Source: Bacteroidales bacterium (lineage in GTDB: Bacteria; Bacteroidota; Bacteroidia; Bacteroidales; JAAUTT01). Taken from it: DNA of 64,000 nucleotides. The stretch is from contig JBBQTB010000015.1 of NCBI GenBank assembly GCA_038213375.1, forward strand, positions 385 through 64,384, written 5' to 3'. Below are positions 7,023 to 48,243 of this stretch, in pieces. The stretch's first letter is position 1; the number at the start of each line of letters is the position of its first letter. Both the position numbers and the translations under genes were made by a program. The notes under the pieces were generated by a model. The model had not been told where the DNA came from and searched no databases. It saw nothing but the letters and a program-made list of their open reading frames with translations.

Positions 7023-7145
7023 ATGTTAAATATAAATTTGTTGATGTGACCTGTCAGGTTTCAAAAACCTGACAAGCCTTTCAATGTTAAATATAAATTT
7101 GCTGATGAGACCTGTCAGGTTTCAAAAACCTGACAGGTCTTTCAA
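7023..7145. repeat. Tandem duplication, 2 x 61 bp, each unit containing a hairpin
   Basis: Units 7023-7083 and 7084-7145 (ATGTTAAATATAAATTTG.TGATG.GACCTGTCAGGTTTCAAAAACCTGACAGG...) differ at only a few positions. Confidence 0.85.
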
Positions 7146-7227
7146 CAGATAGAACCGCCAAATTATGTTTAATGTATCACGAGATAGCAAATGATCAATT
7201 GAAATAATTAATAATTAATTAAAAAGT

Positions 7228-7365
7228 ACCCCAACCCCTTGAAAAGGAGCTATAACAGTTTCTTACAATTCTGAAATACTTTGTAAACAACAGAAGAAAT
7301 TGTAGAGAAGAAGATAATAGCAGATAAGTAGCATATAGTTATTGCCTTTTCAAGGGATTGGGGTT
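7228..7365. repeat. Gene-less inverted pair of the CCCCAACCCCTTGAAAAGG..ATAAC repeat family
   Basis: ACCCCAACCCCTTGAAAAGGAGCTATAACAG (7228-7258) and its near reverse complement GTTATTGCCTTTTCAAGGGATTGGGGT (7338-7364) flank about 80 bp. Confidence 0.7.
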
Positions 7366-8352: not shown

Positions 8353-10011
8353 ATGTTAACAACCCTAACAATTCAAAATTACGCTCTTATTCAGGAATTA
8401 AACATCGATTTTTCCGCTGGCTTGTCAATTATCACCGGCGAAACAGGCGCTGGCAAATCAATTCTTCTGGGAGCATTATCACTTTTGGTAGGTCAGCGTG
8501 CCGACACAACTGTTCTTCTCGATCAATCCCGTAAATGCATTGTTGAAGGTACATTTCATATCAATGGATACGGACTTGAAGATATTTTTGTTCAATATGA
8601 TCTTGATTTTGATGATATTTCTGTTATTCGGCGGGAGATCAGTCCTGATGGTAAGTCGAGAGCTTTTGTAAATGATTCACCTGTTAATTTAACGGTTCTC
8701 AGAGATCTTGGCGAACGGTTAATTGATATTCATTCCCAGCATCAAAATCAGTACCTCGAAAACCCACAATTTCAGTTAAAAGTACTGGATACTTTTGCCC
8801 GAAATTCCATTTTATTACAAAAATATCGGGAAACCTACACTTTACACCGCGCATTAAAAAGTGAATATCAGAACACTTCCGAAATGGTTTCCAAAAACAA
8901 AGCCGATCTGGATTATTTTCAGTTTCAATTTGATCAGTTAAACCTTGCTAAACTGATTGTTGACGAGTTTGATTCTCTCGAACAGGAACTTAAATTCCTA
9001 ACACATTCCGAAGAAATTAAATCTTCGCTGTTAGGGGTGTCAAACTGCATGTCGGGCGAATCTAATTCAGTAATTTTATTAATCAAAGATTCACTTGCAT
9101 TATTTAATAGAATTAAAGGATTTTATCCTCCGGCCATTGAACTACAAAACAGGTTAGATAGCGTATTCGTAGAAATTAAAGATATTGCCCACGAAACAGA
9201 AAACTTTTGTGAGCATATTGATCATGATCCGGTTCGGGTTGATTTTGTAAAACAACGTCTTGATTTAATTTATTCGTTGTTTCAAAAGCATCATAGTGGG
9301 AGTGTGGCTGATCTAATTGGTATTAGAGATAATTTTAAAAAGAAAATTGACGAAATATCAAATGTCGATTTTCGGCTGGAAGAATTGAAAAAAGAAATTG
9401 ATATGGTTCGGTCAAGCCTTGAAAACATTTCCAATGCTATTTCCTCTGAACGCAGAAATGTAATTCCTTCGATAGAAAATAAAGTGCTTGAATTGGTCAA
9501 ACAGCTTGGTATACCCAATGGTTTGTTTAAGATAGAGATGACAACAACCGACGACTTTACATCCAATGGCACTGACAGAGTGAGATTTTTGTTCTCAGCA
9601 AATAAGCAAGGTGTTTTACAGGAATTGGCAAGAGTCGCTTCGGGCGGTGAAATGGCAAGACTTATGCTAAGTATCAAGGCCACTATTTCTGATGAGATCA
9701 CCTTGCCAACCATCATTTTTGATGAAATCGATGCAGGTGTTTCTGGCGATATTGCTGATAAAATGGGGAATGTCATTTTTCATATGTCTGAGAATGCTCA
9801 GATTATTAATATAACCCATCTTCCACAAATAGCCAGTAAAGGACAAAATCATTATTTTGTGTATAAGGTTGATTTGGACGATAAAACACATACAAGCATT
9901 AAAAAATTGAAATCTGATGAACGCGTTATTGAAATAGCTAGGATGTTAAGTGGAGAACAACTTTCGGATGCTGCCATCAATAATGCAAAAGCACTTTTGG
10001 GTGTTGAATGA
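8353..10011 (+). CDS. recN: DNA repair protein RecN
   Basis: 552 aa. SMC-like with Walker A GETGAGKS, long coiled coil and C-terminal signature SGGE...IFDEIDAG. Confidence 0.95.
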   Translation: MLTTLTIQNYALIQELNIDFSAGLSIITGETGAGKSILLGALSLLVGQRADTTVLLDQSRKCIVEGTFHINGYGLEDIFVQYDLDFDDISVIRREISPDGKSRAFVNDSPVNLTVLRDLGERLIDIHSQHQNQYLENPQFQLKVLDTFARNSILLQKYRETYTLHRALKSEYQNTSEMVSKNKADLDYFQFQFDQLNLAKLIVDEFDSLEQELKFLTHSEEIKSSLLGVSNCMSGESNSVILLIKDSLALFNRIKGFYPPAIELQNRLDSVFVEIKDIAHETENFCEHIDHDPVRVDFVKQRLDLIYSLFQKHHSGSVADLIGIRDNFKKKIDEISNVDFRLEELKKEIDMVRSSLENISNAISSERRNVIPSIENKVLELVKQLGIPNGLFKIEMTTTDDFTSNGTDRVRFLFSANKQGVLQELARVASGGEMARLMLSIKATISDEITLPTIIFDEIDAGVSGDIADKMGNVIFHMSENAQIINITHLPQIASKGQNHYFVYKVDLDDKTHTSIKKLKSDERVIEIARMLSGEQLSDAAINNAKALLGVE

Positions 10012-10090
10012 AACTTTTTCATTAAAGCGGTGTTTGAATAAAGTTATCAATTTGAGGCTGTGAAAATCTAAAATCTAAAATCAGAAAAGA

Positions 10091-24903: not shown

Positions 24904-24957
24904 TTTGAAAAGGAGACGCACCTCTTTTCAAATCGCAAGATTTTGAATGTACATGTG

Positions 24958-24988
24958 AAGTTCAGGAGAAATCTTGAACTTTTTTTTG
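24958..24988 (+). terminator. Rho-independent terminator (+ strand)
   Basis: AAGTTCAGGA-GAAA-TCTTGAACTT followed by T7. Confidence 0.6.
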
Positions 24989-25170
24989 TTAACCACAACC
25001 CTTTGAAAAAGGGTTATAACTGAGCCTTATTTATCACATGTTTTGTATTGTAGCAATAGTTTCATCTGATGGTTAATGAGAGTTCAAAAGATGCTGGAAG
25101 CTGTTATAGCCCATTTTAAACTTAGCAAAGCGATCTCACGACCTCAGGAAGTAGCGGGTTGGGTTTAATT
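24988..25170. repeat. Degenerate pair of the CCCCAACCCCTTGAAAAGGGG..ATAAC repeat family
   Basis: GTTAACCACAACCCTTTGAAAAAGGGTTATAAC (left) and GCTGTTATAGCCC...CGGGTTGGGTTTAATT (right, interrupted). TTAAGTCAACGAC at about 25177 also recurs at 48224. Confidence 0.5.
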
Positions 25171-25357
25171 TTGTTTAAGTCAACGACTTTTAAACACGGT
25201 ATATTATTTTAAACTGCTTTTCCCCTTTAATCAATTGATATTGACGTAAACTAAATAATATGTGCATATTATATCATCATGTTTTATTATACTAGCTTTT
25301 ATCAGTATATCAACCGATTACATGGTTTTACTTGTCTGAGAGAGATAAGCAGTTATT

Positions 25358-25935
25358 TTAATTAACCCCAACCCCTTGAAAAGGGGCTATAACAGTTTCG
25401 AACACATTTTTAAATTGTTAAATTTGAAGAAAAAATTTGATGCCCACAAAGTTAAACAACCTAACTCATTTAAAAGATACGCGTGATCATCTTCGAAAAA
25501 ATATGACCAAGGCTGAACTGGTGCTATGGGAAGTGTTAAAAGATAAAAAATTGAGTAAACGTAAATTTAGGCGCCAACATAGTATTGGAAATTATATAAC
25601 CGATTTCTATTGCCCCTCTGAAAAGTTGATTATTGAACTTGACGGACAACACCACTTTATGCCTGAAGGAATTGAAAAAGACTTGGAGAGGGATAATTAT
25701 TTGGCAATGATGAACATTAAAACACTTCGTTTCGAAAATATTGACGTACTTAATAATCTAACCAACGTACTGAAAATAATCAAGTCTCATTTTAAAACCA
25801 ACCAATAACTATCAAATAACATCATCCCTTTACATTTTTTGAGTGCTCTTTAAAAAATGATATTATTGTGAAGCATTATAACTTCCCGCTAGTAAGAAGC
25901 TGTTAGCCCCTTTTTAAGGGGTTGGGGTTAATTAA
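25358..25935. mobile_element. DUF559 gene cassette bounded by about 37-bp terminal inverted repeats
   Basis: Left TTAATTAACCCCAACCCCTTGAAAAGGGGCTATAACAG (25358-). Right end CTGTTAGCCCCTTTTTAAGGGGTTGGGGTTAATTAA (-25935) is its near-perfect reverse complement. Confidence 0.55.
25437..25808 (+). CDS. DUF559 (Vsr/restriction-endonuclease-like fold) protein
   Basis: 123 aa: TKAELVLWEVLKDKKLSKRKFRRQHSIGNYITDFYCPSEKLIIELDGQHH...D..RD..L, the typical DUF559 core. Confidence 0.85.
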   Translation: MMPTKLNNLTHLKDTRDHLRKNMTKAELVLWEVLKDKKLSKRKFRRQHSIGNYITDFYCPSEKLIIELDGQHHFMPEGIEKDLERDNYLAMMNIKTLRFENIDVLNNLTNVLKIIKSHFKTNQ

Positions 25936-25981
25936 ACAATACATTTTCCAGTACTCACCAAGCTTAAAGTTGAATTAAGGT

Positions 25982-26178
25982 GGAAATGGTCGTAGGGGTT
26001 TCCCTTGTTGTGTGTCGTCACATGTTAAAATGTGGTCCGGGGCCGGGCGATAACGTCGCATCGGGACGCTACAACGAATTTGGTCGAATGTCGTGTGGAC
26101 GACAGTATAAAAAAGACGCAGCCATGAAGGATATAGACGGCTAAGGCAAAGCCTAAGCCGAACAAAGGGGAGCATTTC
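25982..26178 (+). ncRNA. Candidate structured RNA or cis element (class unknown)
   Basis: GC-rich, ORF-poor block. Its ends pair (GAAATG 25983-88 with CATTTC 26173-78; CCCTTGTT 26002-09 with AACAAAGGG 26161-69). Internal hairpins TGTCGT-GTGG-ACGACA (26089-26104) and GGCTAAGGC-AAA-GCCTAAGCC (26139-59). The 3' half resembles repeats in the 54-59 kb element. Strand is tentative. Confidence 0.35.
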
Positions 26179-26252
26179 AAGAACAGAACAATGCCAGTCT
26201 ATCGTTGTTTTATTTCCATCATTTTTGTATCTTCGAACAAAAAAAATCTTTT

Positions 26253-47141: not shown

Positions 47142-48119
47142 ATGAATGCTTTTGGAAGAATATTCAAAATCACCATATATGGAGAGTCGCATGGCGCTTC
47201 TGTGGGTATTATTATAGATGGATGCCCTCCGGGGATATTCTTAAATCGTGAGGATTTTGATGCAGACATTGCCCGACGCAAAAGTGGCGCAAAAGGAACA
47301 ACTCCGAGATTGGAGGGCGACCATCCGATGATTATCAGTGGTGTTTTTAACGATTTCACTACAGGCGCTCCCATTAACATTATGTTCGAAAATACAAACA
47401 CACGGTCAGGTGATTATTCCGAATTCAGGGAAATTCCTCGACCCGGGCATGCCGATTTTGTTGCCAATAAAAAATACAAAGGTTTTGAAGATTACCGCGG
47501 CGGAGGTCATTTTTCGGCTCGTCTCACTCTTGGGCTTGTTGCTGCCGGGGTAGTCGCAAAAAAAATAATTCAACCAATTAAAATTGAGGCCTCGTTGGTA
47601 GAAGCTGGTGGGATTTCCGATATTGAAAAGGCCATCGATCTGGCTATAGCTGATAATGATTCCATTGGAGGTGTTATCGAATGCCATGCAACTAATCTTC
47701 CTGTTGGATTGGGTGAGCCATATTTTGATTCTGCGGAAGCGTTACTCAGTCACATTATCTTCTCCATACCTGCTACCCGGGGTATAGAATTTGGAACCGG
47801 ATTTGCTGCTGCACGGATGCGAGGTAGTGAGCATAACGACTGGTTTGTGGATACATCTGGTAAAACCAGAACGAACCATGCCGGTGGTATAAACGGCGGA
47901 ATTACCAATGGAAACGATATTGTTTTCCGGGTGGCTATCAAACCAACCTCTTCTACATCCAAAAATCAGCAGACAATGAACTTTAAAACAGGTGAAATGG
48001 CCGATTTTGTGGTGAAAGGCCGTCACGATGTTTGTGTGGCGCTGCGTGCTCCGGTTATTGTGGAAGCTGCAACGGCCATTGTGCTTGCCGATTTGCAATT
48101 AACGAATCAATGTCGTTGA
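47142..48119 (+). CDS. aroC: Chorismate synthase
   Basis: 325 aa with GESHG, RPGHADF, GGGHFSAR, NHAGGINGGITNG and KGRHDVCV. Confidence 0.95.
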   Translation: MNAFGRIFKITIYGESHGASVGIIIDGCPPGIFLNREDFDADIARRKSGAKGTTPRLEGDHPMIISGVFNDFTTGAPINIMFENTNTRSGDYSEFREIPRPGHADFVANKKYKGFEDYRGGGHFSARLTLGLVAAGVVAKKIIQPIKIEASLVEAGGISDIEKAIDLAIADNDSIGGVIECHATNLPVGLGEPYFDSAEALLSHIIFSIPATRGIEFGTGFAAARMRGSEHNDWFVDTSGKTRTNHAGGINGGITNGNDIVFRVAIKPTSSTSKNQQTMNFKTGEMADFVVKGRHDVCVALRAPVIVEAATAIVLADLQLTNQCR

Positions 48120-48243
48120 CTTAATCAAAATTAACCCCAACCCCTTAAAAAGGGGCAATAACTTGTGACTGGCAATTTTAAAGTTAACCCTCCTTTTTAA
48201 AGAGGGTTGGGAGGTCAACAACTTTAAGTCAACGACATTGATT
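48105..48243. repeat. Nested palindromic element overlapping the aroC stop codon
   Basis: Perfect 20-bp inverted repeat AATCAATGTCGTTGACTTAA (48105-24) / TTAAGTCAACGACATTGATT (48224-43). It encloses TTAACCCCAACCCCTTAAAAAGGGGCAATAAC and GTTAACCCTCCTTTTTAAAGAGGGTTGGGAGG half-sites. Confidence 0.8.

Follow-up and report, generated by a model that had tools for sequence, protein, structure and literature searches.

Intrastrand-triplex repeats of the BoxC/PIT/TM(ECO) type are dispersed through bacterial genomes in intergenic positions, where a type-A unit is often paired in inverted orientation with a type-B unit, and the loci they occupy vary between strains (Holder et al. 2015, PMC4666352). These repeats are also treated by Hoyne et al. 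2000, a paper cited there. Holder et al. name no protein partner, and neither 'DUF559' nor 'endonuclease' appears anywhere in their text (PMC4666352). Here we describe a 64,000-nucleotide stretch of a Bacteroidales genome (the window) in which a 578-bp unit at 25358-25935 consists of a DUF559 gene set between two inverted repeat arms. Catalogues of BoxC/TM-type repeats go back to the 1990s, and to our knowledge their origin, mobility mechanism and protein partner are not known. DUF559 is a very large protein family whose fold has been solved, for which we know of no function. A specific pairing of DUF559 with such repeats, if true, would explain both the repeats and the family; we found no description of this partnership in the searchable literature.

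The window is contig C15:385-64384 of the genome under study (G000; 4.95 Mb, 37% G+C), in which genes for a type IX secretion system (T9SS) and SusC/D are present. It was compared with relatives, mostly of the same genus (G001-G010 and further G numbers; L numbers denote individual loci). We show that arms and gene travel as one insertable unit, found at different loci in close relatives and missing from an empty site in another genome. We also show that different DUF559 clades carry different arm families, and that the genomes concerned also contain each family as inverted doublets with no gene. Very probably, arms and gene make up a single mobile unit and are specifically associated. Our best explanation, a serious candidate that falls a little short of being probable, is that this unit is a selfish cassette built from the DUF559 nuclease gene, a putative promoter of its own and two inverted copies of a genus-specific triplex-type repeat.

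A repeat search placed the inverted arms at 25357-25389 and 25904-25936 (33 nt, 97% complementary, 514 nt between them), and direct reading lengthened the match to ~38 nt for the left arm and 36 nt for the right arm (Table 1). The arms differ by a 2-nt indel (CTATAACAG versus CTAACAG) and a single loop mismatch; with the indel included, the extended left arm reads TTAATTAACCCCAACCCCTTGAAAAGGGGCTATAACAG and the right arm is its complement. Both fold into a mini-hairpin of 6-7 bp (CCCCTT/AAGGGG). At up to 3 mismatches the 21-nt core CCCCAACCCCTTNAAAAGGGG occurs 6 times in the window, against a mean of 0.01 in shuffled sequence. The DUF559 gene is the single sizeable open reading frame (ORF) between the arms. 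An earlier reading made from the letters of the window (the sequence-only reading) had described a 578-bp unit framed by near-perfect inverted repeats, each with this mini-hairpin, and a DUF559 gene as its sole content; all three points held up. The same reading had allowed for static, terminator-like repeats. The arms do not fit a terminator pattern, and the sole terminator-like site is an upstream hairpin at 24957-24982. Its suggested TTAA target duplication was rejected, as TTAATTAA lies inside the inverted repeat and no TTAA is present at the G003 insertion site described below. No outer terminal repeat or clear target duplication was found at the DUF559 cassette. An Rfam scan of the locus returned no family, its sole match being at chance level.

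The protein matched the PF04480 profile across positions 4-106 of 109 (E 6.9e-30, 103.6 bits versus a cut-off of 20.6). The profile search also gave a weak match to PF18741, and no match to the Vsr family proper (PF03852). Its sequence matched PDB 3HRL, an 'endonuclease-like protein' available as a structural-genomics entry only (E 4.8e-15). The motif DF..(x10)..IELDGxxH is intact, TDFYCPSEKLIIELDGQHH aligning with VDFMCVTPKLIVEADGGQH of 3HRL, and D..ExDG..H is also retained in the orthologues of G003, G010 and G004. We take the acidic and histidine residues of this motif to be catalytic, as in the Vsr/PD-(D/E)XK fold. The upstream box TAAATTTG fits what we understand to be the Bacteroidota -7 promoter box, TAnnTTTG, a consensus presumed from Bacteroides promoters, and is the putative promoter of the gene. 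Comparison of the G000 and G003 cassette genes gave a ratio of nonsynonymous to synonymous substitution (dN/dS) of 0.21 with a dS of 0.73; G004, whose alignment was out of register by one codon, was left out of this computation. The DUF559 protein is functional and kept by purifying selection. We estimate the dS of the cassettes at ~2x that of host genes. With a dS of 0.73, estimated to lie above the host value, the cassette lineages are thus old and separate.

Among all arm loci of G000 the DUF559 pair is the only one that bears a gene. Since the genome holds one intact DUF559 gene, the question of whether paralogues are flanked in the same way was moved to relatives. A second DUF559, at C73:1-260, is a frameshifted fragment of a different clade, cut by the contig start and followed by a CCCCTCCTTGAAAAGGAGGGG hairpin. 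Three congeners have orthologues of the intact gene at 67-75% identity: G010, G004 and, with two copies, G003. The arm CTGTTATAGCCCCTTTTTAAGGGGTTGGGGTTAAAA starts 20-30 nt past the DUF559 stop in G003 and G010, and in G004 the gene is flanked by whole doublets.

The close relative G003, whose fabI protein is 100% identical to that of G000 and whose flanking DNA is 91-93% identical, provided a filled site matching an empty one. Its recN-fabI spacer carries an insert of ~735 nt, made up of a decayed doublet and then an arm-leader-DUF559-arm unit; the insert is bounded by outer arm ends, with the junctions gtgAAAA/AAAACAAC... and ...GTTAAAA/tttaaaatc (a slash marks the boundary). The presence/absence polymorphism that the sequence-only reading had proposed to look for is thus found here, the cassette being absent from the same spacer in G000 (Table 1). 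This empty site has no arm, indicating that the arms arrived with the insert in G003. At most an imperfect 8-10-nt repeat (GATGTGAAAA / GGTGTTAAAA) overlaps the arm end at the G003 junction, and this may be microhomology. Furthermore, both cassette arms are A-type (..CTATAACAG..), whereas a gene-less doublet pairs an A arm with a B arm; insertion of a gene into such a doublet would therefore not be enough to produce the cassette.

In G000 itself the cassette lies in the interval between the CHAT and BNR genes (24989-26200), between a decayed miniature inverted-repeat transposable element (MITE) and a GC-rich element. The corresponding G003 interval (C279:3600-7600, L062) contains an 851-aa ORF, another triplex-type repeat (CCCTCTCCCAAAATCCCTCTCCC) and tandem CCAAGTCCCATCGGGACGGCATTATGGTAG repeats. 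No clean empty site for the G000 cassette was found in this G003 interval, and the other congeners are too diverged.

Inverted arms could in principle drive programmed inversion of the DUF559 segment. The cassette does have 33-nt inverted repeats, and 'DUF559 domain-containing protein' has an odds ratio of 14.3 among predicted programmed-inversion targets (PMC9881135). By contrast, there is no invertase nearby in the window, and relatives differ by presence or absence of the segment, not by its orientation. Inversion would also switch nothing, because the putative promoter lies within the segment. We consider this explanation very improbable and return to the mobile cassette.

The association was then scored across the order. 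In a set of 60 genomes, DUF559 homologues were present in 22 and 27 loci were scored for bracketing inverted repeats; 102 positions displaced by 800-1000 nt inside the same loci served as controls. An inverted-repeat score of at least 15, the cut-off, was reached at 13 of the 27 DUF559 loci and at 0 of the 102 control positions. Arm sequence is lineage-specific across the order, and the hairpin-plus-mirror design described below is retained. Five relatives carry an arm-DUF559-arm unit in frame within another gene (L010 in G041, L014 in G009, L021 in G037, L031 in G013 and L016 in G044), the hosts being isoleucyl-tRNA synthetase (IleRS), leucyl-tRNA synthetase (LeuRS) and an Eco57I-like methylase. 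Such units, sitting in frame within aminoacyl-tRNA synthetase and methylase genes, indicate that the arms move with the gene. In G000 the IleRS gene has an arm-like hairpin at this very site (CTCACCCCTATCGGAGGGGCCGGGAG, C22:70327-70360), which adds 9 aa (ASPLSEGPG) to the protein and could be either a footprint or a solo arm within an essential gene.

A second arm family within the genus has its own DUF559 clade. The arm CCCCCTTGGNGAAGGGGGNAGGGGG was present in 34 copies in G008 and 3 copies in G007, with 0 copies in 11 other genomes of the genus. The DUF559 genes of G008 and G007 are distant (35-43% identity), lie at an orthologous locus and are tightly framed by CCCCCTTGGNGAAGGGGGNAGGGGG arms. 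Gene-less doublets whose CCCCCTTGGNGAAGGGGGNAGGGGG arms are near-perfect and whose interiors vary number at least 10 in G008. In a comparison of the first 5,045 of 6,720 bases, no junction of an empty site for the G008 doublets was covered in G007, the flanks being 74-80% identical. The second-family arm CCCCCTTGGCGAAGGGGGCAGGGGGATTGA carries an outer extension, TTTACTACGAAGCWCAAT (G008, L095-L119; G007, L106), and in some doublets its partner is a B-type arm, CTCCCTTACCCTCTTCTCCAAGAGGG. Family 1, to which the arms of the window belong, is found in 8 genomes and its cognate DUF559 in 4.

These data bear on another explanation, in which DUF559 is an ordinary repair or defence nuclease and repeats resembling repetitive extragenic palindromic (REP) sequences, whether mRNA-stabilising, insulating or selfish MITEs, tend to gather near small horizontally acquired genes, gene and repeats being functionally unconnected. 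Gene-less copies do lie in ordinary intergenic spacers, even that between nuoD and nuoH, most copies are accounted for by MITE insertion, and the purifying selection on DUF559 is as for a host gene. The association statistics, however, weigh against coincidence. So do the occurrence of the same arm with orthologues at different loci in four species, the tracking of two gene clades by two arm families, the in-frame cassettes inside essential genes and the unlikeness of the arms to terminators. We regard coincidence as improbable. The nuclease-repeat association put forward in the sequence-only reading is real, specific and general.

Table 1. Features of the window that bear on the DUF559 cassette and its repeat arms.
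Feature	Position	Strand	Description
Left arm, A-type	25358..25395	+	TTAATTAA-CCCC-AA-CCCC-TTGAAAA-GGGG-CTATAACAG; likeness to gene-less 'CTATAACAG' doublets runs to ~25413
Putative promoter box TAAATTTG	25419..25426	+	14 nt 5' of ATG; conserved before G003 and G010 orthologues
DUF559 (PF04480) Vsr-fold nuclease gene	25440..25808	+	122 aa from ATG; 123 aa from TTG at 25437
Right arm, A-type	25900..25935	-	2-nt deletion, one loop change; extension CTTCTTAC up to 25892
Gene-less doublet	7228..7365		Cores 7229-7249 (+) and 7343-7363 (-); CTATAACAG subfamily; no terminal repeats of an insertion sequence; one long hairpin, z -7.0
Empty recN-fabI spacer in G000	10010..10090		75 nt, no arm
Decayed MITE-type doublet adjoining cassette upstream	24989..25188		A arm 24989-25022 (core 24993-25013), decayed partner 25083-25125, outer arm half, one insertion-sequence-type terminal repeat 25176-25188
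M140 MITE, 133 bp	48108..48240		Terminal repeats CAATGTCGTTGACTTAA enclose A-arm/B-arm doublet (A core 48135-48155); fold z -8.5

We next consider the gene-less copies. A census of the entire G000 genome with blastn-short and nhmmer found ~45 arm copies. The M140 family comprises 18-19 copies, each a palindrome of 133-140 bp with a 19-nt outer terminal repeat CAATGTCGTTGACTTAAGG, an A/B doublet as its interior and direct flank duplications of 10-11 bp. Around the window copy, the flanks ATTAACGAAT and ATTAACAAAT make up a target duplication of 10 bp in which 1 position differs. CAATGTCGTTGACTTAAGG also opens a longer repeat that ends two contigs (C22:87418-87558 and C59:1-137); the interior of the parent insertion sequence (IS) is unassembled in G000, the two contigs ending 137 nt inside it. 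In G005, CAATGTCGTTGACTTAAGG bounds an IS (L094) that encodes a DDE_Tnp_1 (PF01609) transposase, with a triplex-type doublet in the stretch that separates the transposase gene from the IS end. M140 is a MITE derived from an IS4-family IS, and most gene-less arms of G000 were multiplied by a DDE transposase after IS4-family ends had enclosed a doublet.

Comparison with G003 confirmed the mobility of M140. The copy at C17 is absent from G003, where the empty site has a single copy of ATTATCGAAT, proving insertion with target duplication. Two further M140 sites are likewise empty in G003. Two copies without a left terminal repeat (C6:147934-148071 and C7:65372-65502) are flanked by direct duplications of 27 bp and 36 bp, whose duplicated ends resemble the absent terminal repeat. 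The G003 empty site has one 36-mer, so these long duplications are real target duplications of unusual length.

Approximately 13 arm loci in G000 have no IS ends. Among the doublets of this kind, those at 7228-7365, C10:99174 and C21:43291 share ~55 nt with the cassette ends, through CTATAACAGYTTC..CA..TTTT.AA. When doublets without IS ends were compared with G003, one was absent, one was replaced by unrelated DNA and one corresponded to a mini-palindrome without the inner arm halves. The absent doublet is a 187-nt insert (C10:68633-68819) with AGATAA on both sides, in the nuoD-nuoH spacer of the NADH dehydrogenase operon; the G003 spacer is 10 nt long. Another palindromic family (GAGACCTGTCAGGTTTCAAAAACCTGACAGGTCTC) stands in tandem at ~7040-7190, just upstream of the 7228-7365 doublet, and occurs also at C10:98400-98500 and C28:52000, downstream of several genes. 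The three gene-less inverted pairs named by the sequence-only reading all exist, but the one at 48131-48219 is the interior of a MITE and that at 24988-25170 a decayed relative of this MITE. Insertion polymorphism of gene-less copies, which it had proposed as a check, was found for M140 and for doublets without IS ends alike, both varying between G000 and G003.

The arms have a common layout in which a mini-hairpin of a C-run and a G-run is accompanied by an additional run 2 nt off. The A arm reads CCCC-AA-CCCC-TTRAAAA-GGGG and the B arm CCCTCC-TTTTTAA-GGAGGG-TT-GGGAGG, the third run of the latter matching as a mirror at 7/8 positions versus 2/8 as a direct repeat. The A arm is uninformative on mirror symmetry because it is homopolymeric (C4/C4/G4). 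Of 13 arms taken from G000 and relatives, 10 had more mirror than direct matches, as does TMECO of E. coli (10/10 versus 6/10). Triads span 4-6 nt in G000 arms and 8-11 nt in some relatives. Judged by their sequence, the arms share the hairpin-plus-mirror design of the BoxC/PIT/TM 'intrastrand triplex' repeats.

A different mobile element also uses these arms. In G005 an element of ~640 bp with a GIY-YIG (PF01541) gene is present in 15 copies of 89-100% identity, each with its own 18-nt terminal repeats (GCATAGCCGTCAGGTTAA) and a sole ORF of 93-99 aa; one G005 arm pair frames it. The element always lies in the loop of an arm hairpin and is accompanied by an 8-bp duplication (CTTAAAAA, CTTCTTAA or CTTTTTAA). 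It was found at L074, L081, L084, L086 and L088-L093 (e.g. G005:C7:37890-38573), five copies lying within a larger duplicated composite. No small GIY-YIG gene was found in the G000 genome. A relic insert, CTTAGCRAAGCGATCTCACGACC, splits arm loops in G000 at ~25120-25150 and C9:69380-69410. In G010 (L006) the arm just after the DUF559 stop is interrupted in its loop by CTTAGTCGTCAGATTAATG, which resembles the end of the GIY-YIG element.

The arms might therefore be an independent repeat family, spread by transposase hitch-hiking, recombination or some unknown factor, into which DUF559 and GIY-YIG genes home as parasites; the arms around the gene would then be halves of the target, and the nuclease would be irrelevant to the gene-less copies. 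The 15-copy element with its constant loop position and 8-bp duplication fits this explanation, as do the relic loop inserts in G010 after DUF559 and in the window, the abundance of arms in G005 without DUF559, and the multiplication of most G000 arms inside an IS4-type MITE. The DUF559 cassette nevertheless departs from the GIY-YIG pattern. Its arms are complete A/A' arms, neither split hairpin halves nor an A/B doublet, and its empty recN-fabI site is arm-free. The in-frame cassettes bring arms into aminoacyl-tRNA synthetase genes, and family-2 arms are confined to genomes with their DUF559. On balance we judge a pure landing-site role of the arms to be unlikely, though far from negligible.

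With the selfish cassette as the preferred explanation, it is possible, though not probable, that the DUF559 nuclease itself acts on the arms. The nuclease would recognise the folded arm, as a hairpin, cruciform or triplex, and nick or cut there. Repair or recombination would next copy or maintain the cassette and the gene-less doublets, in a scheme like that of REP sequences and REP doublets (REPINs) with REP-associated tyrosine transposases (RAYTs), or like that of a homing endonuclease, with an unrelated enzyme. In G000, where a DDE transposase multiplied a doublet enclosed by IS4-family ends as a MITE of 133-140 bp, most gene-less arms have no need of the nuclease. A wider and more doubtful extension would make DUF559 proteins the partners of BoxC/PIT/TM repeats in general. 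Each clade would recognise its own arm, nick it, and copy, homogenise or move the cassette and its doublets, giving a second, non-HUH lifestyle of the REP/RAYT kind in which the arms would also offer landing sites to other mini nuclease elements, the GIY-YIG element of G005 among them.

Several observations weigh against a nuclease-driven system. The G005 genome (20 contigs, 98% complete) contains 30 arms of family 1, many perfect, and no DUF559; its sole PF04480 hit is a true Vsr that looks different and has no arms. In G001, G006 and G009, where the cognate gene clade is missing, 5-12 arms of family 1 are present. Because the GIY-YIG element of G005 targets arm loops, arms can be mere landing pads. 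An IS4-type MITE explains ~25 of the ~40 arm loci in G000, and 4 more arm doublets sit in a second, small MITE frame (CAATAGAGTTTATATAAGTTA). Copy number of the repeat is thus unsafe as evidence of nuclease activity, since capture in a MITE amplifies arms. Nothing points to a recent spread driven by the nuclease, given that G000 has one copy of the gene and that the cassette lineages are old. The co-occurrence counts represent few independent events, as genomes of the same genus are kin. Finally, we know of no DUF559 protein that acts biochemically on such repeats. The sequence-only reading had likened the unit and its gene-less copies to an autonomous element with its MITEs, or to a RAYT with its REPs. 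This stands in part, through the association, the cassette polymorphism and the CTATAACAG doublets that share sequence with the cassette ends; it fails where the main gene-less family proves to be an IS4 MITE and where G005 has arms without the gene.

The genus offers a test bed for these possibilities, with two unrelated arm families that have their own DUF559 clades, a gene-less control (G005) and a filled/empty site pair. It also illustrates how repeats may gain copies indirectly, once an IS4-type MITE has captured them.

Compared with REP/REPIN-RAYT systems, the locus is alike in having a single-copy gene framed by inverted repeats that also form dozens of gene-less doublets, and in the lineage-specificity of its arm families. 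It differs in its enzyme, a Vsr-fold PD-(D/E)XK-type protein of PF04480 rather than an HUH/Y1 (IS200/IS605-like) transposase. Co-occurrence of gene and arm is also imperfect here, as G005 illustrates, and most copies spread as an IS4-type MITE. Free-standing homing endonucleases, such as I-Bth0305I of the Vsr-like EDxHD family and the GIY-YIG Seg enzymes, resemble the DUF559 unit in being small, nuclease-only and present or absent at one locus. As further points of likeness, DUF559 cassettes sit in frame in housekeeping genes of relatives, and in one congener these repeats also serve a GIY-YIG element. Unlike these endonucleases, the DUF559 cassette has structured inverted repeats at its ends and no intron or intein context, and its empty site is without an obvious half-site.

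Among IS-derived MITEs (Correia, RUP and IS4-family derivatives), M140 is a close counterpart, sharing terminal repeats with a PF01609 IS and having target duplications. The DUF559 cassette, by contrast, has none of these mobility signals, and M140 merely carries the doublet as its interior. The likeness to BoxC/PIT/TM repeats extends to the pyrimidine/purine hairpin, the short linker and the mirrored third run, and to dispersed, intergenic, inverted type-A/type-B pairs whose loci vary between relatives. The G000 triads, at 4-6 nt, are shorter than the ~10 nt of E. coli TMECO, and the triplex is putative. To these known systems the locus adds a clean filled/empty pair, two arm-gene lineages in one genus, a genome with arms and no gene, proof of an IS4-type MITE origin for most local gene-less copies and a GIY-YIG element that targets the arms.

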